Shown in pieces: positions 43,566 to 58,029 of a stretch of DNA of 64,000 nucleotides (the first letter of the stretch is position 1; every line of letters starts with the position of its first letter). The stretch spans positions 1,824,001 to 1,888,000 of the forward strand of contig NZ_JAQNDL010000001.1 in assembly GCF_028368995.1 (NCBI RefSeq), in the 5' to 3' direction. The DNA is from Nannocystis bainbridge (GTDB lineage Bacteria; Myxococcota_A; Polyangia; Nannocystales; Nannocystaceae). The translations under genes and the position numbers were made by a program. The notes beneath the pieces were generated by a model. It was not told the DNA's origin. It saw only the letters and a list, made by a program, of their open reading frames with translations, and ran no database searches.

Positions 43566-43992
43566 GGCCGCGACAGTAGCACACTTGCGCAAGTGTCTGT
43601 ACGCTCGCTCGGCCGTCGCTGGCGACCGAGCCCCGCCGAGCTCGAGTCGTGCCGCGGGTATCGAACGGGCCGAGTAAGTCGTGCTCCCTGTCACTGGCCT
43701 CGGCTCGCACCCCGGCGCTGACGCTATACGAGCGGCGCCTCGCACCGCGCGGTCGTCGAAAGCGCAAGGCCGTCCCGACACGACCGACGAGCGAACGGCT
43801 GCAAGAGCCGGCCGGGAGGTCATGGCGCTCGCGCAAAGGTGGTCCAATTCTACGGCCCTCTCCATGCGGAGCCGTACCGACGAAGCGCCGACGCACGCCG
43901 TCTCGACCGGCGCGGGCGACCGCCACGCGCGCCCCTTGCAGGCGCGACGGGCGCGACGGGCCGAGGCCCGCGTGGGGGTCGAGGCCGACCCG

Positions 43993-46545
43993 ATGCGGGC
44001 CATGACCGCGGCGCTGTCCGAAGCCTTCACGCAGCTCCGCAGCTCCGAGCGCGGTCTGACCGACCGCGAGGTACGAGACCGCCTCGCGGCGCTCGGACTC
44101 AACGAGGTCGTGCCCCCCCAGCGCGCCAACCTGGTGCGCGACGTCCTGGCCCGCTTCGCCAACCCATTGATCGCCATCCTCGCGTTCGCCAGCGTCGTCT
44201 CGCTGTCGCTCGGGGACCTCGTCAACGCGAGCATCATCCTCGTGATGATCGCCCTGAGCATCGCGCTCGAGACGTTTCAGACCCGCCGTTCGCAGGCCGC
44301 GGCCGAGCGGTTGCGGGGTCGCGTCGCGCCCGAGGCCACCGCCCTGCGAGACGGGCACTTCATCAGGGTCCCGCAGCGCGAGCTGGTGCCGGGCGACGTC
44401 GTGCGCCTGGCCGCCGGCGCCCTCGTCCCGGCCGATTGTCGCCTCGTCACCGCCAGGGACTTGCACGTGCAACAGGCCGCCCTGACCGGCGAGCCCCTGC
44501 CCGCCGAGAAGGAGGCCACCGCGGGCCCGGCCGGCGATGTCCGCGATCCGGCCGGGATGCCCCACGCCGTCTTCCTCGGCACCTCGGTCGTCAGCGGTGT
44601 CGCCACGGCGCTGGTGGTCGCCACCGGCGCGCGCACTCAATTCGGCGACATCGCCCGCGCGCTCGCCCGCCGGGGCCCGCGAACCGAGTTCGAGGTCGGC
44701 ATGTTCGACTTCGGCGCCTTCATCCTGAAGACGGTCGTCTTCCTGGTGCTGTTCGTGTTCGTGATCGCGGCGGCGGGCCACCGCCCCGTGCTCGAGGCGC
44801 TGCTGTTCGCGCTCGCGCTCGCCGTCGGGCTCACGCCTGAGTTCCTGCCGATGATCACGACCGTCACGCTCGGGGAGGGCGCGCTGCGAATGGCGAAGCA
44901 GCGGGTCATCGTCAAGAACCTGGCGGCGATCCAGAACCTCGGCAGCATCGACGTGCTGTGCTGCGACAAGACCGGCACCCTCACGGAGGGGCGGATGACC
45001 CTCGAGCGCCACGTCGATCCGTTCGGGGCCGCGGACGAGCGCCCGCTCCGGCTCGCCAGCATCAACAGCTTCTTCGAGAGCGGCATCGACTACGGCTTCG
45101 ACGACGCGGTGCTCGACCGCGCCGGCATCGATCCGCTCGACGCCGCCGTGCTGCGCCACGAGCACCCCGATCTGCGGGGATGGCGAAAGCTCGACGAGCT
45201 CCCCTTCGACTTCGAACGCCGCCGCATCAGCATCCTCGCCGAGAAGGACGGCGCGAGCCTCCTCGTCACCAAAGGCGCGCCGGAGGGCTTGCTGGCGCAG
45301 GCGACCTCCTGCGAGACCGGCGGCGCGCGGCGGCCCCTCGACGCCGAGCTGCGCGCGCGCTGCGAGGCGACGTTCCGGGAGCTCTCGACCCACGGATACC
45401 GCGTGCTCGCCGTGGCCTACAAGGAGATCACCGACGTCGCGCCGCTGCGCGCGGGCGACGAGGCCGGCCTCACCCTCGCCGGCTTCCTCGCCTTCGTCGA
45501 CGCGCCGCTCCTCGGCGCGGCTCGAGTGCTCGAGGCGCTCGCCGCCGAGGGTGTACGGGTCAAGATCGTCAGCGGCGACAACGAGCTCGTCGTGCGCCAC
45601 ATCGCCGATCGCGTCGGCATCGCTCCGGGCCAGATCCTCCTCGGCGCCGAGGTCGACCGCCTCGGCGACGCCGCGCTCGGCAAGGTCGCCGAGGAGACCC
45701 GCCTCTTCGCCCGGGTCTCGCCCGCGCACAAGAGCCGCATCATCCGCGCGCTCCGGGCCCGCGGTCACGTCGTCGGCTACCTCGGCGACGGCATCAATGA
45801 CGCGCCCTCCCTCCACGGCGCCGATGTCGGGATCTCCGTCGCCGGCGCCGTGGACGTGGCCCGCGACGCCGCCGAAGTCATCCTGCTCGAGCGCGACCTC
45901 GGGGTCCTCCTCGCCGGCATCCTCGAGGGTCGGCGCGCCTTCGGCAACGTCATGAAGTACGTCCTGATGGGGACGAGCTCCAACTTCGGCAACATGGTCA
46001 GCATGGCCGGGGCCTTCGTCGTCCTGCCGTTCTTGCCGATGCTCCCGACCCAGATCTTGCTCAACAACTTCCTTTACGACCTGGCGCAGATCACGATCCC
46101 GACCGACAACGTCGACCCCGGCTTCCTCAAGAAGCCGCGGCGGTGGGACATCGGCCTGATCCGTCGCTTCATGGTCGTCCTCGGGCCGGTCAGTTCGCTC
46201 TACGACATCCTCACGTTCTACGCGCTCCTCCACCTGTTCCACGCGTCGCCCGCGTTGTTCCACACCGGGTGGTTCGTCGAGTCCCTGGTCACGCAGACGC
46301 TGGTGTTGTTCGTCATTCGTACCGCCGCGCGCCCGTGGGACAGCCGGCCGAGCCGACCGCTCGTGCTCACCGCGCTGGCCGTCGTAATCACCGCGCTCGT
46401 GCTGCCCTGGACGCCGCTCGCCACGCCGCTCGGGTTCGTCGCGCTACCGCCGGGCTTCTTCCTGTTCCTCGTCGTCGTCTCCGTCACCTATCTGGCGTTC
46501 GTCGAGGGCGTCAAGCGCCGGCTGTTCGCTCGGTTCCTCGAGTAG
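43993..46545 (+). CDS. mgtA: Magnesium-translocating P-type ATPase
   Basis: LTGE, AVGLTPEFLPM, DKTGTLT, KGAPE, GDGINDAP, TSSNFGN, LLNNFLYD, GWFVES. Confidence 0.93.
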   Translation: MRAMTAALSEAFTQLRSSERGLTDREVRDRLAALGLNEVVPPQRANLVRDVLARFANPLIAILAFASVVSLSLGDLVNASIILVMIALSIALETFQTRRSQAAAERLRGRVAPEATALRDGHFIRVPQRELVPGDVVRLAAGALVPADCRLVTARDLHVQQAALTGEPLPAEKEATAGPAGDVRDPAGMPHAVFLGTSVVSGVATALVVATGARTQFGDIARALARRGPRTEFEVGMFDFGAFILKTVVFLVLFVFVIAAAGHRPVLEALLFALALAVGLTPEFLPMITTVTLGEGALRMAKQRVIVKNLAAIQNLGSIDVLCCDKTGTLTEGRMTLERHVDPFGAADERPLRLASINSFFESGIDYGFDDAVLDRAGIDPLDAAVLRHEHPDLRGWRKLDELPFDFERRRISILAEKDGASLLVTKGAPEGLLAQATSCETGGARRPLDAELRARCEATFRELSTHGYRVLAVAYKEITDVAPLRAGDEAGLTLAGFLAFVDAPLLGAARVLEALAAEGVRVKIVSGDNELVVRHIADRVGIAPGQILLGAEVDRLGDAALGKVAEETRLFARVSPAHKSRIIRALRARGHVVGYLGDGINDAPSLHGADVGISVAGAVDVARDAAEVILLERDLGVLLAGILEGRRAFGNVMKYVLMGTSSNFGNMVSMAGAFVVLPFLPMLPTQILLNNFLYDLAQITIPTDNVDPGFLKKPRRWDIGLIRRFMVVLGPVSSLYDILTFYALLHLFHASPALFHTGWFVESLVTQTLVLFVIRTAARPWDSRPSRPLVLTALAVVITALVLPWTPLATPLGFVALPPGFFLFLVVVSVTYLAFVEGVKRRLFARFLE

Positions 46546-46597
46546 CGGCAGCAGACGGCGCATTGTGTCGTGGCCGGCAGCCGAGCGCACGGCATGC

Positions 46598-47485
46598 GAT
46601 GCCCCGGCGCTGAAGGCCGCCGACATCGGTGTCGCCATGGGCGGGCGCGGCACCGACGTGGCGCGCGAGGCGGCCACTCTCGTGCTGCTCGACGACGACT
46701 TCACTTCGCTGGTGGACAGCGTCCGCTCGGGCCGCCGTATCATCGACAACCTCCGCAAGGCGCTCGCATACATCCTCGCGGTGCACGTGCCGATCGTCGG
46801 TCTCACCTTGATCCCCGTCTTTCTTGAATGGCCGCTCGTATTGCTGCCGATCCACATCGCGTTCCTGCACCTCGTGATCGACCCGGCTTGCTCCGTCGTC
46901 TTCGAGGCCGAGCCGGAGGAGTCCGATGTGATGACCCGTCCGCCGCGGGACCCGCGGGCGCCGCTCTTCGATCGCCGCTCCATCGCCCTCAGCCTGGTTC
47001 AGGGGGCGATCGTGATGCTCGTCGTCGTCGCGGTCTACGGGCTCGCGTTGAGTCGTGGGCGCGGAGGAGCCGACGCCAGGGGACTGACGTTCACCACCTT
47101 CATGGTGGCCAACCTCGGCCTCATCTTCACCAATCGTACGTGGTCTCGGGTGCGGACCGCGACCAGGGGTCGAAATGCTGCGCTCTGGTGGGTGACCGGC
47201 GGCGCGGTCGTCTTCCTCGCGCTCGTCCTTTACGTGCCGGGCCTGCGGGAGCTGTTCCGGTTCGCCCCCCTGCGACCGCGCGACATCCTCTTCTGCATCG
47301 GCGCGGGCGTCCTGAGCGTGTCGTGGTTCGAAGCCTTCAAGGCCATCCGGCCGCGTGAGAGGCACGGGGTCGCTGCGGTCGCACCCGATGAACGACGGGC
47401 TCCGGCGAGCGAAACCTTGCTCCGCGGGGAGGCAGCCCCGACAGAACGGCCCTCCGCTGGCGTGGTCCGAAAAGCCAGCCCATGA
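46598..47485 (+). pseudogene. C-terminal fragment of a second cation P-type ATPase
   Basis: Begins abruptly at DAPALKAADIGVAMG.RGTDVAREAA and continues through the TM helices; lacks the A, N and DKTGT regions. Confidence 0.85.
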
Positions 47486-48691: not shown

Positions 48692-49901
48692 ATGCAGACG
48701 ATGGTCACAGCAGCCTCGACGTTCCTCGTCTCGTTCCTCACCATGGACGGCGAGCCGGCGACCGAATCGGCGCGAGCCGGGCTCACTGCGGTCGAGTCGC
48801 TCGGCAAGCACCTCTTTTTCGACGAATCGCTTTCGATCGGGAGCAATCAAGCGTGCGCGGCGTGCCATGGCCGCGATGTCGGCTGGACCGGGCCCGTCGA
48901 GGACATCGACGCCCACGGCGCCGTCTACGAGGGTTCGGTTCCGGGGCGCTTCGGCCCGCGAAAGCCGCCGAGTAGCGCATACGCGTCGTTCAGCCCGCCG
49001 CTGCACCGCCCCCCCTGCGGGCGAGTTCGTCGGGGGCAACTTCGGGGACGGCCGGGCGACCGGCGAGAAGCTCGGCAATCCGGCAGCCGATCAGGCGCAG
49101 GGGCCTTTCCTCAACCCGGTGGAGCAGGCGCTCCCCGACGCGGCCGCGCTCGTGACGCGGGTGTGCAGCCTGAAATCAGAGTACTGGTTGCTGCTGCGCT
49201 TCGTGTGGGGCCTCGCCGTCTGTGACGACGTCGACGCCGCATTCGCAGCGATCGCGCGGTCGATCGCCCGCTACGAGGCTTCGCGCGAGATGAGCCCGTT
49301 CAGCTCGAAGTTCGACCGGTACCTCTCGGGAGAGACCGAACTCACCGACCAGGAGCAGAGGGGCCTGGCGCTGTTCAAAGGCGAGGCCAAATGCAAAAAC
49401 TGCCACGCGATCGCCGGTGCGGACCAGGGCGGCCCGCCGCTCTTCACCGACTTCACGTTCGCCAACATCGGTGCACCGCGTAATCCGGAGAACCCATATT
49501 ACGATCAGCCGCCCGCCATCAATCCGCTCGGCAAGGCGTACGTCGATCTCGGCCTGGGTGGCTTCCTCGCCACCCGCCCGGAGTACGCCGAATATGCAAC
49601 GGTCAACGAGGGTAAGCATCGGGTGCCGACCCTGCGCAACGTCGACCGCCGGCCACGGCCCTCGTTCACCAAGGCGTACGGACACAATGGGTACTTCAAG
49701 AGCCTGGAGGAGCTGGTCCACTTCTACAACACGCGCGCTGTCCTGCCCCAGTGTGCGGCGAACGACCCCGGAGAGAGAGTTACGTGTTGGCCTGCGCCCG
49801 AGGTGCCGCGCAACCTCGATGTCGACGTCGGCGATCTCGGACTCACGCCGGCCCAGGAGGAAGATGTCGTCGCGTTCTTGCGCACGCTGACGGACAGGTG
49901 A
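48692..49901 (+). pseudogene. Di-heme cytochrome c peroxidase/MauG family, frameshifted near 49009-49015
   Basis: LGKHLFFDESLS..QACAACH in one frame; GGNF.DGRA, QAQGPFLNPVE, CKNCH, VPTLRNV, HNGYF in the +1 frame. The junction falls at a C7 run. Confidence 0.85.
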
Positions 49902-49958
49902 ATCCGGCCCCGCGCGCGCCCGGCGAGCCGAGGGTCCTCGGGCCAAGCACCCCGCGCG

Positions 49959-50039
49959 GGGTTCGCCGGCTCGTCGTCCGCCGAGGTCACGCGCGTGCCC
50001 GCCGACGCTGGCTGAGCCTCACAGGGGTCCCACGCGACG
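49959..50039 (+). repeat. 81-bp direct repeat, copy 2
   Basis: 77/81 identical to 37053-37133. Confidence 0.9.
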
Positions 50040-50074
50040 CCATCCGGCAACCGGCGACCTCCACCGGCTCGCGA

Positions 50075-50734
50075 TCAGGGCGGCGATGAGTCGGCTGCGG
50101 CCTCTTTGCGCAGCTTGGACCAGACGCGCAGGAGCTCCGCGCTGCGCGGGTCGAGGCTGCCGCGGGCGCGCACCGCCGCCTCGACCACGAGCATGCGCGC
50201 CGTCAGGGCCGGCTGCACGTCGACAGACCGGAGGTCGCGCAACGTATTGGCCGCCGCCTCGATGAAGTCGACCGGCGCGACCTCCTCCATGAATGTGAGC
50301 ACCGGCTCGACCGACTCCGCCTTGGGCACCGCGCCGATCATCTCGAGGAACGTGACCACCTTCCAGCGCGGCCACAGATCGCCGAACTTGAGGATCACCT
50401 CCCAGCACAGCGGCAAGATCGCCGGTCCGTAGACTCTGCGGGCGTTCATGGCGTACTGGGTCCAGATCCGCGAGATGCCGGTGACTCGCTTGCCCTCGGC
50501 CTCGACGTTGACCTGGTCGAGCTCCGCGAGCACCTGACGATACAGCGCCGCGTGCTCGCTCCAGCCGCGGACGATCGCCGCCAGTGTCCGCCACAGCCAG
50601 TCGGGGTCGCCCGCGAACGCCGGCAGGTAGGTCATCACCGCTGTCTGGTCGACGAGCACCCGGTCGCGCTGGTGCGCGTAGTCCTCGCCGTGAAGTCTTC
50701 GAAGCGCCGTGAACTCTGGCCAATGCTGCGTCAT
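50075..50734 (-). CDS. Hypothetical helical protein (219 aa); candidate immunity protein for the PAD
   Basis: Its ATG overlaps the PAD stop codon (ATGA); last gene of the PAAR operon; no signal peptide seen. Confidence 0.75.
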   Translation of the reverse strand: MTQHWPEFTALRRLHGEDYAHQRDRVLVDQTAVMTYLPAFAGDPDWLWRTLAAIVRGWSEHAALYRQVLAELDQVNVEAEGKRVTGISRIWTQYAMNARRVYGPAILPLCWEVILKFGDLWPRWKVVTFLEMIGAVPKAESVEPVLTFMEEVAPVDFIEAAANTLRDLRSVDVQPALTARMLVVEAAVRARGSLDPRSAELLRVWSKLRKEAAADSSPP

Positions 50735-52515
50735 ACCTGCTGCTCCCACCACCAGCGATCGACCGGTGGCTCCCGCTTGCTGTTCGTCCCGCAGTGGATC
50801 TCCCCCGAATTGACGTGATACGTGAAGAAGTCGTCGACGAATTCGAGGTCGACCCCGGTCAGTCCCGGCGGCCCGAGCGCCGCGCGGATGTGGCTCTCGA
50901 ACTGGCACACCCCGTCGATCATCGGCCCGAACGGCTTGGGGATCACGAGCCGCACCGTCTTGTCGGGTTTCGTCAATACCAGCATATTGACCACCCCTGG
51001 CGTATAGGCGATGAAATACGTTCGGTCCAGCATGAACAGCACCGGCAGCGGGATTATCTCGGATTCGGCGAGGTCGAGCTCTTCCATGAGCTTGGCCTTG
51101 ACGCCGTCGAGGTACTCCTGCACGATCACCTGCACGTCCATGAACGTCGCGTCGTCGAGCATCGCGTCGACTGTGCGCAGCGGGTAGTTGTCGTACAGCT
51201 CCTGCGGCGTCGCGTCGGTCGGCGGCCGATCGGCCCGCGGCGGCGGCGGCGTGAGCTGCAGCAGCGGCGTGGCGCCCTGCCGCGCCGCCCTCATTCGGCG
51301 CAGGATCGTCAACGCTTCGTTCGGGCTGGCGAGCGCGACCTTGAACTTCTTGGGCGCGTTCTTCATCGGCACGAACGTCATCACTTCGTCGACGTGGCCG
51401 ACCTCGAGCCACCCGGTGTCGAGCGTGAACGGCTCCTGGACCTGCTGCGCGCGCAGGAAATCGACGACATCGGGCTGCATGTTGCGTCGGGCGCCGCCGT
51501 CGACGTGCTCGCCGTAGACCAGGCGCCCGAACTTGTACTCCTTGCCGCGACGGCTGTGGGTAAACGGCGGCGAACACTCGAGGTTGCCGAACGAATCGAG
51601 GGTACCGCCAATGCCCGGGGGCATCGCCTGGACCCACCCGAAGCCGGGCTCGAGCATCCGCTCGCGCGGGTAGCGGTCGATGGTCCCCCACCTCATCTCG
51701 CTGCGATTGTTGGCGGTGCGCAGCACGACGGGCAGGTGGCGCGCCGCCGGGGGGCCGGTCCGCGGCAGGCTCGAGAACCCGAGCTCCATCGCGTCCTGCA
51801 ACCAGCGATCCCTGCCGTGCGGCGGCGGTGCGACCTCCGGGGCGGGCAACCCGGCGGCGGCGACCTGGGCCGCGAGGTCGCGGCGAAACTCCGCGTTGTC
51901 GATCGCCTCGCCGACGTACACCCGCGTGGTCGGGTCGAGGTGGTTGAACGCGATCCACGGCGCGACCCGCATCCGGACCTGCTCCTCGTACGTCCCGGAG
52001 CCGCCTCGCTCGATCCGCAGCTTGATCACGACCTCGCCCGTGAAGCTGCCCTGAGCGTACATCACCGCCTCGACCCCGAGCTCCTTCTCGGTGAAGTTCA
52101 GGTCCGTCAGCGGCCAGCTCAGCACCGCCGCGGTGCCGCCCTGGGCCGGGTCGCCGACCCCCGCGCCGAGCACCTGCGCGGCCCCGCTGCTGCGGCTGGC
52201 GAACACCCGCAAGCGCGGGGCATCTTCGGCCGAGACCTCGAGGAACCCGCGCCACGAGCCCGGCGCCGGCGGGTGCCCGGCCGCGCGCCGGATCACCAGC
52301 GGGGCGATGTCGTCGGGATCGGGCGCCGTGTTGATCTGCGCGTCCTCGTTGTCGCAGCAGTGCTGCCGATCCTCGTCGTCGTTGTTGCAAAGGATGATCG
52401 CGCCCTTGCTGCCGGGGCCCCACGCCCAGCGGTCGTTGTGGCTGCGATCGTCGTCGACGACGCCGTCGCGGTCGGCGTCGACGTGCAGGTGATACTCGAC
52501 CAGGCACGCCTCCAT
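50731..52515 (-). CDS. Protein-arginine deiminase (PADI-type, PAD_M + catalytic domain)
   Basis: DADRDG, GAIILCNNDDED, RVAPWI, DRWLQD, LDSFGNLECSPP, LDTGWLEVGHVDE, IPKPFGP, YH...GEIHCGTN..R.P....WWE. Confidence 0.95.
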   Translation of the reverse strand: MEACLVEYHLHVDADRDGVVDDDRSHNDRWAWGPGSKGAIILCNNDDEDRQHCCDNEDAQINTAPDPDDIAPLVIRRAAGHPPAPGSWRGFLEVSAEDAPRLRVFASRSSGAAQVLGAGVGDPAQGGTAAVLSWPLTDLNFTEKELGVEAVMYAQGSFTGEVVIKLRIERGGSGTYEEQVRMRVAPWIAFNHLDPTTRVYVGEAIDNAEFRRDLAAQVAAAGLPAPEVAPPPHGRDRWLQDAMELGFSSLPRTGPPAARHLPVVLRTANNRSEMRWGTIDRYPRERMLEPGFGWVQAMPPGIGGTLDSFGNLECSPPFTHSRRGKEYKFGRLVYGEHVDGGARRNMQPDVVDFLRAQQVQEPFTLDTGWLEVGHVDEVMTFVPMKNAPKKFKVALASPNEALTILRRMRAARQGATPLLQLTPPPPRADRPPTDATPQELYDNYPLRTVDAMLDDATFMDVQVIVQEYLDGVKAKLMEELDLAESEIIPLPVLFMLDRTYFIAYTPGVVNMLVLTKPDKTVRLVIPKPFGPMIDGVCQFESHIRAALGPPGLTGVDLEFVDDFFTYHVNSGEIHCGTNSKREPPVDRWWWEQQV

Positions 52516-52589
52516 CGTATTACCCGGGCGGGTCGCCGCCGTCGGCCCGCGCTCGCTCTCTCCCCGCTGGACTCCGCCACCTAATCCCA

Positions 52590-53369
52590 TCACTCCTCCT
52601 CTGCCCAGAAGCGATCGAGGCACCCGATCGCCCCGCGCAGCAGTGCTTCGATCCGCGTCCGCTCGTTCGTGTCCCCGACCTCGGCGAGCGCCCGCCTGGC
52701 CCACATGAACTGCGGATCGCCATGAAGATCGCCGCCGAAGATCACCGCGAGGCCGACGAACAGCGCCTGCCCGCGCTCGCTGATCAGCGCGAAGCTCCGC
52801 GCCTTCGCCAGCGCCTGTTCGACCGTCCGGACCAGCGCCGGCTCGCCGATGGCCTCGCACTTGGCCGGGAACACCCGGCGGAGCAGCGCCACCAGCCGGG
52901 CCCGCAGGTCGAGCCCCGCCTCGTCGCTCAGCGTGCGCTCGGGCTGCGCGAACTGCTGCAGCTCGGCCGCCGCCCGACCCGGCTGCGAGCGCCCGGCGGC
53001 GTCGAGGTCGTCGCTGGCCGTGCGGTCGAGGAAGCGCCAGGCGGCGTCGCGGAGCCGGTCGAGGCGCGCGAACTCGCCGTCGCCCGCGCGCAGCGGCTCC
53101 ACCGCCCACGCGTGCTGTGGGTCGGTGTCGAAGCCGGCGCCGAACATCAGCATCAGCTCGATGTAAATTCGCGTGCCGCGCTCGGAGACCAGCCCGTACG
53201 TCTCGGCTCGCGTGCAGCCGACGACGATCAGCTCGCCGAGCTCGGGATCGCCGACGATCCGCAGGTGCCGCGGGCTGAACCGCTTGAGGTGCGCCAGCAT
53301 GCGCGCCTCGAAGTCGGCGAGCGCCGCGCGCTCGAACGCCCCCAGTTGTGTGGCGCTGATCTTCAGCAT
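52590..53369 (-). CDS. Hypothetical two-repeat protein; candidate T6SS co-chaperone
   Basis: Two homologous halves (..SERG...FG....DPQ..WA); lies directly downstream of the DUF4123 gene. Confidence 0.75.
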   Translation of the reverse strand: MLKISATQLGAFERAALADFEARMLAHLKRFSPRHLRIVGDPELGELIVVGCTRAETYGLVSERGTRIYIELMLMFGAGFDTDPQHAWAVEPLRAGDGEFARLDRLRDAAWRFLDRTASDDLDAAGRSQPGRAAAELQQFAQPERTLSDEAGLDLRARLVALLRRVFPAKCEAIGEPALVRTVEQALAKARSFALISERGQALFVGLAVIFGGDLHGDPQFMWARRALAEVGDTNERTRIEALLRGAIGCLDRFWAEEE

Positions 53370-53376
53370 CGCGGAC

Positions 53377-54498
53377 TCACTCGATCACGCCCATCCGCAG
53401 GCCGTGAGTGGCTCGTTCGAACAGGACCGCGTCGACCGCTCTTCGCAGCTCCGATCTCTGCTCGGGCGTCATCACCTCGGCGAAGGTGCATAGCACCCGT
53501 GGGTCGTAGAAACGAAAGAACCTCGGCTTTGCCTCGCCCTCGACTTCGACCTTGAGGAATTGGCGAAAGTGGCGGCGGACCTTCTCGAAGCCGGCGCTGC
53601 TCTCCACATAAACACCCCAGGCGTCGCCCCAGCCCTCGGTGACGAGGCGCCGCAGCAGCCCCGAGCTCGGTTGCAGGTGGACGAGGTAGGGAGCGATGTC
53701 GTCGAAGGCGCGGCCCTGTTCGCCGTCGTAGAGGGAGGCGTAGGGGTCGATGCTCTCCTCGACGAGCTGGAGGGCGCGTTCGGAGCGGGCGGCGTCGATG
53801 ATGGCGTAGAGGTTGCCGGAGCCGCAGCGGCGCGCGAGCTCGGTGAGGGCGTCGAGGGCGGCGGCGGCGGCGTCGATGGGTTCGGGGGGCGGGGTATGGT
53901 CCTCGACGAGGAAGCGATAGGCCGTGCGGACGGCGGTCATCCAGCCGCGGTTGGCCATCTCGCCATACCATGTGGCCACACCATTGATAGCAAGGCGGTG
54001 CGTACCCTCGGCCTGGACGTGGGCGCTGACGCCGTCCCATACGATCTGAAAGTGCGGTGACCCGGCGGTGTCGCCATGGACGACAAAGTCGGCCTGAGCG
54101 CTGCCGACGGTGCGCGGGACGCCGAGGTCGAGCACGAGCTTGCGGTAGGTCTCGCGCCCGGACCACACCTGCAAGACGCCGCGGCGACGCACGGACGGAC
54201 CGTGCGGCAATTGCGGGTAGCGGCGAAATGTGTAGTCGATCTCCTCGAGCTGGTCGGCGTATTCGGGGTCGATGTCTTCGAGGTTGCGAGCCGCGAGCGG
54301 GCCGAGGGTGGTGCGCATGCGATCTTCCTCGTGAGGCACGCGGCCCTGTTTGGTCTGCTCGGCGATGAACTGGAGCTGTGCCTCGATCTGCCCGAGCAGC
54401 GGCCAGCGCGAGGGGTCGAGCGTGCGGGTGCGGCGGCGGGCCTCGACGAGCACCTGGGCGAAGGCGTCGCGCGACAGAATCCGCATCATGTCGGCCAT
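53377..54498 (-). CDS. Fusion: Tsi6-like immunity domain + degenerate FHA + DUF4123 T6SS effector chaperone
   Basis: IEAQLQFI...TLGPLAARNLEDIDPE (Tsi6-like); FHA-like beta segment; LYAIIDAAR, SLYDG, APYLV, GWG..WG, HFRQF, FFRFYDPRVL (DUF4123). Confidence 0.85.
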   Translation of the reverse strand: MADMMRILSRDAFAQVLVEARRRTRTLDPSRWPLLGQIEAQLQFIAEQTKQGRVPHEEDRMRTTLGPLAARNLEDIDPEYADQLEEIDYTFRRYPQLPHGPSVRRRGVLQVWSGRETYRKLVLDLGVPRTVGSAQADFVVHGDTAGSPHFQIVWDGVSAHVQAEGTHRLAINGVATWYGEMANRGWMTAVRTAYRFLVEDHTPPPEPIDAAAAALDALTELARRCGSGNLYAIIDAARSERALQLVEESIDPYASLYDGEQGRAFDDIAPYLVHLQPSSGLLRRLVTEGWGDAWGVYVESSAGFEKVRRHFRQFLKVEVEGEAKPRFFRFYDPRVLCTFAEVMTPEQRSELRRAVDAVLFERATHGLRMGVIE

Positions 54499-54507
54499 GG
54501 TGTCGCC

Positions 54508-55521
54508 TCAGACGTTGCGGCTGGAGAGGTGGAAGAGCCGCGGGACGTACACCTGCGTGCCGCCGCCCTGGCACGTGATCTGCTCACCGCGATCCGTGGC
54601 GGTGCTCGGGAAGGTCCAGGTGTCGATCACGGAGGCGGCGGTGCTCTTGAGGCCGAACGCAGGGGCTTCGCCGTACTCGACGGTTCGTCTGTCTCTTGAG
54701 ACACGTGTGCCGTCGGGCCCGGAGACGATCGCGGAGGTGCCGAGCTGCTCCGGCGTCAGGTCCGGATCGAGCGCGAAGTACTCGCCGTTGACCCCACCCG
54801 GGTAGCCGCGCTGGTGAAGCGTCCGGGCGGCGACCGCGATCACCTCGACGGGCTGCGAGAGGTCGATCGCGCGGATGTGCGAGGTCAGCCTGCTCGGCTT
54901 GAACTTCTCGCCGGCGTGGGCGGCGTAGAACTGATAGGCGACGGCGACTCTGGCGGCGACCCGTTCGGCGTCGAGCCCATCGTTCAGGTTGGGCTGGGCG
55001 GCGAGCCCCTGCTTGTTGAGCAGCGAGCTCGCCAGCAGATCGCGACCGAGCTCGGCGCCGGACGGAGGTCGGTCGTCGTCGAGGGTCGCGGTGTCGGGGT
55101 CGGGCGGGACGACCTCGGCGGAATCGTCGTGCTGGTCCATCTCCTGGCGCTTGCGCTCGCATTCCTCGCAGAAGGGGGTGCCGCGCCGGGCGGCGCCGCG
55201 GAAGGTGAAGGCCTGGGTGGAGTCGCCGATCACGACCGTCGGGCAGCCGGCGACGATCAGGTCGCCAGAAACGTGAGAACCAGGATCCGATCTGCGGGCA
55301 GCGGGACGACTGTTGATCAGCACGGTCGACGAGCCCTGCCTGATCCTGTCGGTCGGACCGACCGGAAAGCAAACGACGCTGTCCCCCTGGCGCGCGGCGG
55401 GCAAGAACCCGATGATCACGTTGGCGCTGCCGCTGAAGATCGGACCGCCGACGTGAGGGACGGGGCCGGGCTCGGCCTTCGGGCACACGTGGAAGTCGCT
55501 GATTCGAGCGGCGTCAGGCAT
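54508..55521 (-). CDS. PAAR-domain protein with C-terminal Tse6/Ntox46-like NAD(P)+ glycohydrolase toxin
   Basis: AARISD.H.CP, PH.GG, PAARQGD, PAARRSD; TPFCEECE; A..FY...SHI.AID.S.PVEV, G.YF, LG, LKSTAA...DTW, GGGTQ. Confidence 0.88.
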   Translation of the reverse strand: MPDAARISDFHVCPKAEPGPVPHVGGPIFSGSANVIIGFLPAARQGDSVVCFPVGPTDRIRQGSSTVLINSRPAARRSDPGSHVSGDLIVAGCPTVVIGDSTQAFTFRGAARRGTPFCEECERKRQEMDQHDDSAEVVPPDPDTATLDDDRPPSGAELGRDLLASSLLNKQGLAAQPNLNDGLDAERVAARVAVAYQFYAAHAGEKFKPSRLTSHIRAIDLSQPVEVIAVAARTLHQRGYPGGVNGEYFALDPDLTPEQLGTSAIVSGPDGTRVSRDRRTVEYGEAPAFGLKSTAASVIDTWTFPSTATDRGEQITCQGGGTQVYVPRLFHLSSRNV

Positions 55522-55703
55522 GGATCCGGCGATCCTATCATAAGCCGGACGCGGCGACCCGAGACGCGTGCTGCGGCCGAATGTGGATGGCCGAGATCGC
55601 GCCGGGCGGAGGCGAACACCAGACGAGGCGAGGCTCAGGTGGGTATCGTGATACCCCAATTGACGGGCGCCGGCGATCGCGTGCATGCTCCGCGTTCGTC
55701 GGC

Positions 55704-57449
55704 GTGTCGACCTCGTTCTCACCGCAGATCGGCGAGCGCTTCGCCGGCCGCTATGAGCTCAAGTCGCCGCTCCGGAGCGAGGGCGCGGTGCGGGCGTTCC
55801 TGGCGCTCGATCACCATGCGGGCCTCGACGTCGCGCTGTTGCTGCTCGACCCGACGTGTGCGCACCCGAACGCTTGGGCTGCGTTCGCCCGGATCGTCGC
55901 CGCGGCGACGGCCAGTAAGATCGCGGGGCTGGTGCTGCCGCAGGGGGTCGCCAGCACGCCGCCAGCCCCGCCGTTCTGCCTGGCCGAGCCGCGGGTGTTC
56001 CGCGGGTTCGACAAATTGCGCGACCAGGGGCCGATGCCGTGGCGGCGCGCCCTGATGCTCGGCGAGCGCACGGCTGAGATCCTGCACGCGGCCCACGCAG
56101 CGACGGGCGTCGCTCACCGGATCCTGACGCCGTCGCGCTGCACGCTGACGATTCGCGATGACGTCAGGGTGATCGACTTCGGCGTGGCCGAGCTGGAGCT
56201 CGGCAGTCCGGACGAGGCCGGGTATCGCGCGCCGGAGCAGCGGCAAGGCGGCGGCGACTCGCGCAGCGACGCATATACGCTCGCGGTCATCCTGACCGAG
56301 CTGATCACGAATCAGAAGTCGGCCGGACAGACGCCTCCGCGGCTGCGCTCGCTCGCCGCGGTGCCGCAGCCGGTGGACGATTTCATGGCCAGGGCGTTGT
56401 CTCAGGATCCGGCGCAGCGGCCCGATCTCGCGGCGATGCGCGCCGGGCTCCGCGAGCTGCTGAGTGCCGCCGAGGCGACGACCGCGGCGGCTCCTCGGCC
56501 CAAGCCCAGACGCGATTTCTCCTCGCTCTCGATCCGCTCGGCGCCGCCGGGCGCGAGGGCGGCCCCGTCCGTGATGCCGTCGACGAAGCCGGGACCCGCA
56601 GTCGGAGTGGGCCCGGGTCTGGCGAATGTAGCGAGTCAGCCGGTACGGCCATCGTTACCCTCGATCGCGAAGGCTGCGGCTCCGCGGATGTCGAGCGCAG
56701 AGGTCTCGTTTCAGGCACCCGCGGCCTTCAAGACCGAGCTCCTCCCCCCCGCCCCGCCGACTGCGGCACCTGCGGCCTTCAAGACCGAGCTCCTCCCCCC
56801 GGTCTCATCGACTCCGGCACCTGCGCTCACTGACAGGACTGAGATCTTTCCTCCGGTCTCATCGACTCCGGCACCCCCGCTCACCGACAGGACCGAGATC
56901 TTTCCTCCGGTCTCATCGACTCCGTCCCCCCCGCTCACCGTCAGGACTGAGCTCCTCCCTCCGGTCCTGCGTTTGACGCCGGTGAATGGCGAGCGGACCG
57001 AGGTCGTGCGAGCGGACATCGCAATCGTTCGCGAAGAGCAGGCCGCACCCGAAAAATCGCTCCGAGGTTCGTTCGCGCTGGCCCAGGCGAAGGCGAGCGC
57101 AGCAGTCCTGGTGGCGAGCCCAGGAGCGGCTGCGGGCGCAGACCCGCCGACCGAGAATATCGCCGACCCACTGCCCCCCGTCGATACGACGCTGCTATTG
57201 CCGCCCGAACCGGCACGCCCGGTTCCGGCGGTCGAGCCGCCAGCTTTCGACCCGCTGCCTCCGGAACCGCAGGCTCGGTCTACCGCCGAGGTTCGACCAC
57301 CGGCCGATCGGGTTCAGGCGACGCCGTCGGCGCGATCGCCGACGATCGCTAAGCCGGTGAAAAGTTCGTTCAAGTCGACGTGGATGTGGATCGGCGCCCT
57401 ATGCCTCGCGGGGCTCGTCCTCGCAGCGCTGTGGCTGCTGATCACCTGA
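55704..57449 (+). CDS. Ser/Thr kinase-like (probable pseudokinase) with Pro-rich repeats and C-terminal TM helix
   Basis: GRYEL, VIDFGVA, YRAPEQ and SDAY retained; VAIK replaced by VALL, HRD by HRI, and no Gly-loop. Confidence 0.8.
   Translation: MSTSFSPQIGERFAGRYELKSPLRSEGAVRAFLALDHHAGLDVALLLLDPTCAHPNAWAAFARIVAAATASKIAGLVLPQGVASTPPAPPFCLAEPRVFRGFDKLRDQGPMPWRRALMLGERTAEILHAAHAATGVAHRILTPSRCTLTIRDDVRVIDFGVAELELGSPDEAGYRAPEQRQGGGDSRSDAYTLAVILTELITNQKSAGQTPPRLRSLAAVPQPVDDFMARALSQDPAQRPDLAAMRAGLRELLSAAEATTAAAPRPKPRRDFSSLSIRSAPPGARAAPSVMPSTKPGPAVGVGPGLANVASQPVRPSLPSIAKAAAPRMSSAEVSFQAPAAFKTELLPPAPPTAAPAAFKTELLPPVSSTPAPALTDRTEIFPPVSSTPAPPLTDRTEIFPPVSSTPSPPLTVRTELLPPVLRLTPVNGERTEVVRADIAIVREEQAAPEKSLRGSFALAQAKASAAVLVASPGAAAGADPPTENIADPLPPVDTTLLLPPEPARPVPAVEPPAFDPLPPEPQARSTAEVRPPADRVQATPSARSPTIAKPVKSSFKSTWMWIGALCLAGLVLAALWLLIT
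56715..56966 (+). repeat. Intragenic tandem repeats (51-bp then 54-bp period) encoding TE(L/I)(L/F)PP units
   Basis: GCACC.GCGGCCTTCAAGACCGAGCTCCTCCCCCC at 56715 and 56766; CCGGTCTCATCGACTCCG at 56799, 56853 and 56907. Confidence 0.9.
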
Positions 57450-58029
57450 GCGCGACGGCTCGCCCCGAGCAGACGAGGGAGCGCCCGACTATGGGCGCAG
57501 GTTGGCGCGCATCGAGGGATTGCAATTCAAGCAATGATCGCGCCGGGGCCCGGCTCCAAGAATGTCGACACCATCGATTCGCGGCAGTCGCTCGTCCACG
57601 GCCGAACTGGCAGCAAAGAAAGCTACGACAACATCCTGCGCGTTCGAATAAGACTCGGCTGCGAGAATGCCCGCACTCATCTCCGGCACTCTCGCAGCGA
57701 CCTCGTCTCCTGCGACGAGCACGGTCAGCCCGGGAGGCGCCCTCATGTCGAGAGGATCTGCAGGCGCCTCTACCGCGATGTGGAGTTGACGCGCATGATC
57801 CGCTCGAAGCCGGCCAGTCTTCATTTCGACCGCGACGCGGCCGCGTTTGCAGAAACACCGGAGAAGCCCTCTGGCGCGGAAGTGCACCCCCTCGCCAAAG
57901 CGCGCCCAAGGTAGCGTAGCTGCCCGTAGGGCGCGAGAGACCTGTAAACGCGACGTAAACCGGGGGTAATTCCGCGGCGGGGCCCGTTGCCGGGCTCCTG
58001 GGCGTTTGCTAGGTACGTACAACGAACGC

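Follow-up and report, generated by a model that had tools for sequence, protein, structure and literature searches.

A probable type VI secretion cassette of a myxobacterium with a PADI-type deiminase as candidate cargo

Why should a soil myxobacterium carry an enzyme of the family that citrullinates proteins in animals, and why in a row of genes that begins with the tip of an injection spike? The question is raised by a window of 64,000 nucleotides (C1:1824001-1888000) from a genome of 11.05 Mb and 70% G+C, on the minus strand of which, at 50075-55521, translations and Pfam delimit five co-oriented genes. They encode, in order, a PAAR spike-tip protein with a C-terminal Ntox46 domain (gene 1), a Tsi6-DUF4123 protein (gene 2), a two-repeat helical protein (gene 3), a PADI-type deiminase (gene 4, or PAD) and a helical protein that is a candidate immunity protein (gene 5). 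An initial annotation of this DNA had listed five such genes, with the PAAR-toxin first and a 219-aa protein last, and on this the translations and Pfam agree. We consider it probable that the cassette is a type VI secretion system (T6SS) "spike accessory" island in a Nannocystis-like myxobacterium, with the deiminase as its cargo.

In the mechanism that we propose, genes 2 and 3 would form a split adaptor like that of TecT and co-TecT, which would keep hold of the deiminase and mount it on the VgrG-PAAR spike, and the Tsi6 domain of gene 2 would neutralise, and perhaps also grip, the Ntox46 domain of gene 1. Firing of the T6SS would bring the deiminase into a neighbouring cell, where peptidyl-arginine of that cell's proteins would be converted to citrulline. 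Sister cells would be protected by gene 5, a loop of which (residues ~76-96) would cover the catalytic cysteine.

The deiminase and its partner

Gene 4 matches the Pfam families PAD (325.9 bits, 4.6e-97; cut-off 25) and PAD_M (66 bits, 3.9e-18; cut-off 24.8). Its product is 85% identical to a protein of Nannocystis pusilla and 81% identical to one of Nannocystis sp. RBIL2, and it matches human PAD3, PAD1, PAD4 and PAD2 over its whole length (E about 1e-70), from about residue 116 of the human proteins. No Pfam match to PAD_N was found, in keeping with the start of the PAD3 alignment at PAD3 residue 116; this absence is usual for two-domain bacterial PADIs and is compatible with membership of PF03068. 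The catalytic residues D350, H470, D472 and C646 of PAD3 align to D241, H374, D376 and C575 (594-aa numbering), and the Asp/His/Asp/Cys tetrad is invariant in 28 of 28 and in 80 of 80 aligned PADs, as it is in all 22 of the partner-linked PADs described below. A hydropathy heuristic, which is not a dedicated predictor, found no signal peptide in the deiminase (maximum 19-residue hydropathy 1.22), and hydropathy revealed no membrane-spanning or signal-like segment in any of the five cassette proteins. At the level of sequence, the product of gene 4 is a PADI-type deiminase that retains the whole catalytic tetrad and lacks an export signal. It shares domains PAD_M and PAD_C, the tetrad and the presumed ligands of calcium site 1 (Ca1) with the animal and cyanobacterial enzymes (PAD1-4, cyanoPADI), with ~32-35% identity to vertebrate PADs; unlike them it lacks PAD_N, has the presumed ligands of Ca2 and in part those of Ca4 replaced, and is encoded beside a dedicated inhibitor-like partner and spike genes.

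The start of the deiminase gene needed revision. The genes had been annotated with gaps of 9, 7 and 74 bp and one ATGA overlap; the 9-bp and 7-bp gaps and the overlap, formed by the stop of the deiminase gene and the start of the 219-aa gene, follow from the coordinates. The 74-bp gap is probably not real: with the in-frame ATG at 52590 as start, the protein gains 25 residues, and close homologues (615-650 aa) conserve them. On this sequence comparison the deiminase most likely starts at 52590 and has a length of 619 aa. The ATG shares its A with the stop of the third gene (TGATG), and this one-base overlap may couple the translation of the two genes. A scan of 49700-55900 gave no promoter-like and two terminator-like sites against 1.7 expected, which at 70% G+C is uninformative.

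The N-termini of partner-linked deiminases are rich in Gly or Cys (Met-Gly-x-Gly, Met-Cys-Cys or five Cys in a row), and a conserved Cys then comes immediately ahead of PAD_M (P0011, P0012, P0017, P0026, P0037; L029, L075; window 52500-52590). Acylation in a eukaryotic target, metal binding and periplasmic disulfides are guesses at what these N-termini are for.

The relation between the deiminase and gene 5 was modelled. In three runs, the complex of the two proteins reached ipSAE values of 0.89, 0.88 and 0.89, against 0.00 for the best of three controls; contacts agree between runs to at least 91%, and the gene-5 protein has a pLDDT of 91. Among solved complexes, 58 of 80 reach the mark applied to this score, and among mismatched pairs 2 of 110; these counts hold only roughly here, since our own alignments were supplied. 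The solved PAD entries that the sequence search returned include no complex of this kind, which makes it unlikely that the predictor passed by reproducing a known structure. On the deiminase, the modelled interface includes W238, D241, H374 and C575, and therefore the active site; on gene 5, it is centred on loop 76-96, with residues 82-85 closest to the catalytic Cys. The model makes gene 5 a candidate immunity protein that would block the deiminase active site. Other T6SS immunity proteins, RhsI1 among them, place an inhibitory loop in the catalytic cleft, according to a passage of PMC10539506.

A profile search of a representative library gave 998 cluster representatives of the gene-5 family at E ≤ 1e-10; a count of 6250 at E ≤ 0.001 was set aside, being inflated by long HEAT-like repeat proteins. 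The ESM Atlas neighbours of gene 5 include clusters named "Immunity protein 30", Imm47 and HEAT-repeat (0.90-0.94, fewer than 170 shared features), which serve as leads only. Long proteins of 1224-6021 aa (P0188, P0197, P0200, P0207, P0263, P0266) match positions ~100-175 of the gene-5 profile 8 to 20 times, and on this basis the C-terminal region of the gene-5 protein is similar to a HEAT-like repeat. Downstream of one planctomycete deiminase (L036:2797-3948), a 444-aa frame contains three gene-5-matching stretches and may be a tandem multi-copy immunity protein; three library hits of 427-458 aa (P0120, P0145, P0229) carry two such stretches.

Export signals differ between the deiminases and their partners. 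We called a signal peptide where a hydrophobic segment follows the start codon, by a simple hydropathy rule that, for long fused deiminases, covered only the 400 residues before PAD_M. Such N-termini occur in 12 of the 22 gene-5 homologues in the surveyed loci, several of them with a lipobox-like Cys, and in 42 of the 140 best library gene-5 representatives of at most 400 aa; they occur in none of 14 gene-3 homologues and in one of 22 deiminases, where a Cys run produces an artefact. Immunity proteins reside where their effector acts, as a passage of PMC10539506 states. An unsignalled effector with an exported immunity protein is the pattern of T6SS toxins that act in the periplasm, and because so many gene-5 homologues are signal-like and the deiminases are not, the periplasm is likely to be the site of action in many lineages.

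Table 1. The five cassette genes and the divergent neighbouring gene, in positions of the window
Feature	Positions	Strand	Basis
PAAR spike-tip and Ntox46 protein, 337 aa (gene 1)	54508-55521	-	Pfam
Tsi6 and DUF4123 protein (gene 2)	53377-54498	-	Pfam
Two-repeat all-helical protein, 259 aa (gene 3)	52590-53369	-	no Pfam family
PADI-type deiminase, PAD_M and PAD (gene 4)	50731-52515 as first called; 50731-52590 from upstream ATG	-	Pfam
Helical candidate immunity protein, 219 aa (gene 5)	50075-50734	-	no Pfam family
Kinase-like gene, C-terminal membrane anchor	55581-57449	+	Pkinase 1.4e-4, below Pfam cut-off

The pair in other genomes

If the deiminase is delivered by a spike, its relatives should lie near spike genes, and the neighbourhoods of PAD genes were surveyed accordingly. 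The survey took the best 80 of 575 PAD-encoding stretches, one genome per species, with up to 10 kb on each side, and searched their 12,287 six-frame open reading frames (ORFs) with jackhmmer profiles seeded from the window proteins (E ≤ 1e-4). A gene-5 homologue lies directly downstream of the PAD gene, on the same strand, in 22 of the 80 loci. VgrG was found in six of the loci, DUF4123 in five and PAAR in two, and Pfam confirmed all 10 of the spike or adaptor marker calls submitted to it. At least one of these markers flanks 9 of the 22 partner-linked loci and none of the 58 others; a lack of linkage between PAD homologues and PAAR or DUF4123 genes had been named in advance as evidence that would count against the delivery idea, and the survey did find such linkage. 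TssC, a T6SS core protein, was present in 11 of 15 tested genomes with the pair and in one of five genomes with other PADs, a small and hand-picked control.

Some of the clearest loci, in Alteromonas and Lysobacter, are simpler than the Nannocystis cassette. An Alteromonas locus (L030) contains VgrG, a short DUF4123 gene, a gene-3 homologue, PAD and a gene-5 homologue, with PAAR on the other strand, and locus L023 has VgrG, DUF4123, half-size gene-3 homologues, PAD and a gene-5 homologue. The order is VgrG, PAD and gene-5 homologue in Lysobacter (L020), and PAD, gene-5 homologue and VgrG in two Polyangiaceae loci. Taken with the complex model and with the variable cargo of the paralogous cassettes described below, the recurrence of the pair and its linkage to spike genes support the earlier placement of the deiminase in the effector slot and of the last gene in the immunity slot.

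In a quick maximum-likelihood tree of 80 rows, from which L044 was omitted (its gene is split over three frames), all partner-linked deiminases fall in one half, together with the cyanobacterial clade, and the label "no partner gene" requires two changes against a shuffled mean of 20.2. Their hosts are Myxococcota, Acidobacteriota, Planctomycetota, Pseudomonadota, Thermodesulfobacteriota, Fibrobacterota, Gemmatimonadota, Deinococcota and Actinomycetota; spanning nine phyla, the deiminase/gene-5 pair therefore appears to move between lineages.

Some deiminases of the survey are parts of larger proteins. In Actinoplanes aureus (L034:5075-11662), a 2196-aa frame combines Peptidase_S8, PG_binding_1, a flavin amine oxidase, PAD_M and a C-terminal PAD, and is followed by a gene-5 homologue; TssC is absent from this genome. 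The protein has the look of a secreted toxin of several enzymes with which a Gram-positive bacterium employs the same deiminase-partner module. Deiminases fused to N-terminal OmpA-like and PG_binding_1 domains occur in L025, L031, L057 and L021, and the same fusion is seen in proteins P0014, P0015, P0019, P0020, P0033, P0034 and P0063. Those of L025 and L057 also carry DNA_circ_N, a domain like that of phage Mu gp43. Inspection by eye found no signal peptide at the annotated N-termini of the OmpA-fused deiminases.

Spike tip, proposed split adaptor and paralogous cassettes

Gene 1 is built of an N-terminal PAAR domain (PAAR_motif 63 bits, 3.1e-17), a polar linker and a C-terminal Ntox46 domain of the Tse6-like NADase family (35.3 bits, 1.4e-08; cut-off 25). 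Its sequence matches in PDB are SalCis10 (4e-22) and the Tse6 toxin domain 4zv0 (1e-4), and SalCis10, the best solved relative of its PAAR domain, is the tip protein in a contractile injection system. The presence of DUF4123 adaptors, and of VgrG-type spikes next to the paralogous cassettes, nevertheless points to T6SS. Gene 1 has no transmembrane segment (maximum 19-residue hydropathy 1.32). All four paralogues retain a Cys-Glu-Glu-Cys motif in this linker (54900-55200), which may bind a metal.

Gene 2 matches Tsi6 at residues 16-90 (35.2 bits, 1.4e-08; cut-off 26.9) and DUF4123 at residues 230-349 (109.9 bits, 1.2e-31; cut-off 25.8), and it reaches the NCBIfam Tla1 chaperone model at 4e-13, below that model's cut-off; it has no PDB sequence match. 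The FHA label given to this gene at first was not borne out, Pfam returning no FHA match in residues 101-228 even at E ≤ 1; in a low-confidence model (pLDDT 57.3, 5-row alignment), the middle part is only beta-rich, between the helical Tsi6-like part and the DUF4123 part. All four paralogues, and Nannocystis sp. RBIL2 as well, have Tsi6 fused to DUF4123. By the Tse6-Tsi6 precedent, we infer that the Tsi6 domain may dock the adaptor on the PAAR protein. Gene 2 ends at residue 373, 24 residues past the DUF4123 domain, and the adaptor C-lobe is therefore missing from it.

Gene 3 would supply this lobe. The halves of its sequence share 34% identity (E 3e-16), there are homologues of half its size (about 100-140 aa), and its model, made from a nine-row alignment, is all helical (pLDDT 83.8). 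Foldseek returned no PDB match to the model at E ≤ 1e-3. An exhaustive structural search (VIA) placed 9r8g_B at the top (Z 12.6, root-mean-square deviation 2.5 A, 103 aligned residues, 14% identity), followed by a row at Z 7.0 and, at rank 50, by Z 4.2; repeat 1 of gene 3 superposes on residues 199-302 of Tap3 in 9r8g_B. Tap3, a DUF4123 adaptor of P. putida, consists of an alpha/beta N-domain (1-198) and a five-helix C-domain (199-302) (PMC12909789). Passages of Colautti et al. (PMC11582642) describe DUF4123 adaptors as a conserved N-lobe and a variable effector-binding C-lobe, which in TecT and co-TecT are encoded by separate genes. Because the modelled fold matches the C-terminal lobe of Tap3, gene 3 looks like a split-off and duplicated effector-binding C-lobe of a DUF4123 adaptor, comparable to the case of TecT/co-TecT. 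Those DUF4123 genes that precede a gene-3 homologue encode only an N-lobe (175 aa in L121-L123, at most 182 aa in L023 and 200 aa in L030), which is consistent with the split-adaptor form.

A gene-3 homologue lies directly upstream of PAD in 11 of the 80 surveyed loci. The family is uncommon, with members in 5 of 301 genomes from the same phylum and in 8 of 400 from a sample of a gammaproteobacterial class, and its contexts are mixed; its ESM Atlas neighbours are unnamed clusters. Homologues also precede unrelated proteins of 841, 571 and 266 aa, and gene 3 is therefore not specific to PAD. In the genome of L024, gene-3 homologues overlap the start of ~840-aa proteins without a Pfam family (L118:8372-12672, L119:8179-12541), followed by uncharacterised proteins of 317 or 366 aa, with no spike gene within 8 kb; these may be unrecognised effector-immunity pairs.

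Known systems supply the parts of this arrangement. The initial annotation had compared the cassette with PAAR4-TecT-coTecT-TseT-TsiT of P. aeruginosa, and the gene order of that H2-T6SS operon (PA3904-08) indeed holds here, as PAAR, DUF4123 chaperone, co-chaperone, effector and immunity protein in the excerpt of PMC10586262, while gene 3 resembles the Tap3 C-lobe. According to passages of PMC11582642, TecT is an N-lobe-only DUF4123 protein and co-TecT provides the effector-binding function, and we read genes 2 and 3 likewise; gene 3 is likened to co-TecT (PA3906) by role and gene order, not by sequence or fold. The TseT operon differs in that its cargo is a nuclease, PAAR4 has no toxin domain and TecT no immunity domain, whereas here the candidate cargo is a deiminase, Ntox46 sits on the PAAR protein and Tsi6 on the adaptor. 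The K3-T6SS cluster vgrG3-tap3-tke5-tki5-PAAR of P. putida (Tap3-Tke5, 9R8G) shares a DUF4123 adaptor with a C-domain like gene 3. Tap3 is one chain and its cargo Tke5 a MIX-domain pore-forming toxin; in the cassette, by contrast, two genes would carry the lobes, with the C-lobe in duplicate, and the candidate cargo is an enzyme that has no MIX domain.

The first two genes recall the NAD(P)+ glycohydrolase pair Tse6/Tsi6 (Tne1) of P. aeruginosa, which also has PAAR with a C-terminal Ntox46 and an adjacent Tsi6-family partner. Tse6-type effectors have transmembrane segments and Eag chaperones, according to a passage of PMC10539506, whereas gene 1 has no transmembrane segments, Pfam finds no DUF1795 gene in the cassette, Tsi6 is a domain fused to the adaptor, and the likeness of gene 1 to Tse6 is weak (E 1e-4). 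As injected protein-modifying enzymes with cognate immunity, Tre1 (ADP-ribosylation) and CccR (AMPylation of FtsZ) are alike in concept, as far as the relevant part of PMC11925235 describes them; here the reaction would be hydrolytic arginine deimination by an unrelated enzyme family that needs no cofactor. The secreted bacterial protein-citrullinating enzyme at hand for comparison is PPAD of Porphyromonas gingivalis. PPAD is exported by type IX secretion (T9SS) and belongs to a deiminase family different from PF03068, and we know of no immunity partner for it.

The host genome contains T6SS core genes, which delivery would require. The initial annotation had suggested looking for T6SS genes elsewhere in the genome, and TssC matches were found at three places; next to one of these, on contig 2, lie TssK and TssM, and another TssK is the neighbour of the TssC on contig 5. 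A genome-wide profile search over all six-frame ORFs gave 13 VgrG, 8 PAAR, 6 DUF4123 and 4 gene-3 homologues; inside the window, the only PAAR and DUF4123 matches are those of this cassette. Three further pairs of PAAR-Ntox46 and Tsi6-DUF4123 genes are encoded on the same contig, 58-65% identical to the window pair. Downstream of the pair, cassette B has a 360-aa Peptidase_M15_3 protein and then a 119-aa half-size gene-3 homologue, and cassette C has a 637-aa protein of unknown function and then a 556-aa SMI1_KNR4 (SUKH-1) protein; cassette D has nothing downstream and faces a convergent islet of VgrG, a gene-3 homologue and a 266-aa unknown protein. A constant delivery module with changing cargo is, as far as these sequences go, the look of effector islands. 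The block 50075-57458 is the only part common with the Nannocystis sp. RBIL2 locus, and the flanks differ in the two Nannocystis genomes.

That block includes the kinase-like gene divergent from the cassette, which has a C-terminal hydrophobic segment (2.48). Its paralogues lie at C1:1535390, C1:1562455, C1:701194, C1:1987763, C1:1993763, C2:269792 and C2:1012856; members of the family are divergent from three of the four PAAR-Ntox46 cassettes, and paralogues adjoin cassettes B and C, one TssC gene and several VgrG genes. The sequences, judged by eye, have lost the HRD Asp and the Lys that binds ATP, other residues standing in their places, and contain Pro-rich repeats; the proteins may be pseudokinases. 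The gene is inherited together with the cassette and may encode a T6SS spike-associated accessory protein or regulator, or may not belong to the mechanism. Elsewhere in the window, the plus strand at 43972-47485 has an intact P-type cation ATPase gene (857 aa) and, after it, a distinct 282-aa ORF that matches Cation_ATPase_C only (E 3.9e-40) and may be a duplicated gene fragment.

Competing readings and what delivery would mean

Several observations weigh against delivery of the deiminase by a T6SS spike. The window contains no vgrG or T6SS core gene, as the initial annotation had pointed out and the genome-wide searches agree, and the genome offers 13 candidate VgrG carriers for its PAAR protein. 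In the survey, the fetched flanks, some of them on short contigs, show no T6SS marker at 13 of the 22 partner-linked loci. TssC is absent from pair genomes of Acidobacteriota (L025), Planctomycetota (L036) and Trueperaceae (L029), all three metagenome-assembled genomes (MAGs), and from that of Actinoplanes aureus (L034); the PAD/gene-5 module is therefore not tied to T6SS alone. The complex of deiminase and gene 5 is a prediction, and a signal-like segment is absent from gene 5 here, from its Nannocystis orthologue and from its nearest neighbour, in an acidobacterial MAG. For gene 3, the structural search tool itself notes that helical models can reach a best Z near 13 by chance. In L121 and L122 the gene-3 homologue comes last after VgrG-DUF4123, followed by an efflux operon, and in cassette B the half-size homologue stands downstream of the peptidase; neither order fits a simple rule that the co-adaptor precedes the cargo.

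Calcium is a further difficulty. The Ca1 ligands are kept in all 22 partner-linked PADs, the Ca2 Glu in none of the 22, and Arg replaces the Ca2 Asp in 14 of 22; the Ca4 Asp is Gly in this deiminase, and the cyanobacterial PAD clade keeps both Ca2 ligands. In all of this, the assignment of aligned residues to individual calcium sites is in part presumed. Free calcium in the bacterial cytoplasm is low. PADIs are calcium-dependent, as parts of PMC8826395 report for the cyanobacterial enzyme. The same parts state that calcium sites 2 and 4 are confined to the cyanobacterial and animal clade and that other PADIs may be regulated differently, and the loss of Ca2 in partner-linked PADs agrees with this restriction. 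That the Arg at the Ca2 position replaces a calcium "switch" is speculation.

Among the alternatives, the one that survives best is that the operon holds two independent weapons, namely PAAR-Ntox46 with Tsi6, and the deiminase carried by DUF4123 and gene 3 on a VgrG encoded elsewhere, the Tsi6-DUF4123 fusion being an accident of gene fusion with no docking role. We regard this as a real possibility, if the less probable account; the initial annotation had inferred that one spike would carry both payloads. Characterised DUF4123 adaptors bind a C-terminal VgrG motif, as a passage of PMC11582642 reports, and the PAD module follows VgrG without a PAAR-toxin in L020, L023, L030, L040 and L049. Also in its favour, the identities of the Ntox46 (0.57) and Tsi6 (0.66) domains among the four paralogous pairs show no clear toxin-immunity co-variation. 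On the other side, TecT binds the C-terminal extension of PAAR4, according to the same passage, and the fusion persists in four paralogues and in Nannocystis sp. RBIL2.

It is unlikely, in our estimation, that the deiminase is aimed at eukaryotes (amoebae, fungi or other grazers or prey), with gene 5 protecting only the producer before export. The substrates and the calcium control of PADIs are best known in eukaryotic cells, and the Met-Gly or Met-Cys(-Cys), Cys-rich N-termini of the clade presumably recall eukaryotic acylation motifs; the cyanobacterial PADI citrullinates mouse proteins and histone H3, as described in part of PMC8826395. Bacterial antagonism better explains the signal-bearing gene-5 homologues (12 of 22), which fit protection from a neighbour's toxin in the periplasm, and the OmpA-like and peptidoglycan-binding fusions, which point to the bacterial envelope.

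That gene 3 is instead a cytoplasmic inhibitor, or a second immunity protein silencing the deiminase before export, strikes us as distinctly improbable. Its homologues are cytoplasmic (none of 14 signal-like) and tightly linked to PAD even where gene 5 looks periplasmic (L022, L024, L029, L030), and the half-size homologue of cassette B sits after the peptidase. The fold, however, matches an adaptor C-lobe, homologues follow N-lobe-only DUF4123 genes in L023, L030 and L121-L123, and their occurrence beside the unrelated 841-, 571- and 266-aa proteins argues against a PAD-specific inhibitor. Least credible of all is an ordinary physiological enzyme-regulator pair merely lying beside T6SS genes, which would account for the 13 of 22 loci without a T6SS marker but not for the spread over at least nine phyla unlike species relationships, the linkage to spike genes (9 of 22 against 0 of 58), the modelling of gene 5 on the active site, the PADs without export signals beside many partners that have them, or the block in different flanks of two Nannocystis genomes.

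Delivery of the deiminase as T6SS cargo thus remains our preferred reading, and a bolder proposal, which we hold to be rather doubtful as a whole, can be built on it. Citrullination would be an interbacterial weapon, used by a clade of PADIs that has spread over at least nine phyla by gene transfer and that is injected by the T6SS or exported within other, giant secreted proteins. The enzyme would kill by deiminating envelope or cytoplasmic proteins and would be restrained by a family of immunity proteins that plug its active site, and Tsi6 would, in addition, dock the adaptor of a second toxin to the PAAR tip. Animal PADIs are thought to derive from cyanobacterial PADIs. Because the putative toxin clade groups with the cyanobacterial PADIs on the tree, the animal citrullination enzymes would, in this proposal, descend from a bacterial toxin lineage.

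The delivery logic has precedents in TseT and Tke5. As far as the searched literature shows, the new elements are the chemistry of the proposed cargo, the immunity family that goes with it, the fusion of Tsi6 to the adaptor and the free C-lobe in duplicate. Full-text literature searches found no link between a PADI-type deiminase and the T6SS or polymorphic toxins, and those matching papers that were listed, as far as their titles and abstracts tell, concern the metabolic arginine deiminase pathway, PPAD and T9SS, or host PADs. Term searches of surveys of T6SS effectors, adaptors and PAAR proteins find no deiminase. In the main text of PMC7714669, a survey of adaptor markers, neither arginine nor deiminase, citrull or PAD occurs; a PAD family could be among the 92 effector families of its supplement, which lay outside the search. 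The portions of T6SS effector reviews that bear on the question name nucleases, deaminases, NADases, (p)ppApp synthetases, ADP-ribosyl- and AMP-transferases, lipases, peptidoglycan hydrolases and pore formers, and no deiminase. PMC8826395, the main evolutionary study of bacterial PADIs, contains neither "secretion" nor "toxin" in its main text.

No physiological role is assigned to bacterial PADI-type enzymes in the literature examined, and the toxin reading would supply one. The simple loci in culturable Alteromonas and Lysobacter, such as Alteromonas sp. ASW11-130 (VgrG, DUF4123, gene-3 homologue, PAD, gene-5 homologue) and Lysobacter sp. Root690 (VgrG, PAD, gene-5 homologue), make it directly testable. 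If it is true, arginine deimination would be a new T6SS effector chemistry, PADI enzymes would have in the gene-5 family a natural protein inhibitor that could be useful as a tool, and the split and duplicated adaptor C-lobe would extend the TecT/co-TecT principle. It would also offer a new angle on the origin of animal citrullination.

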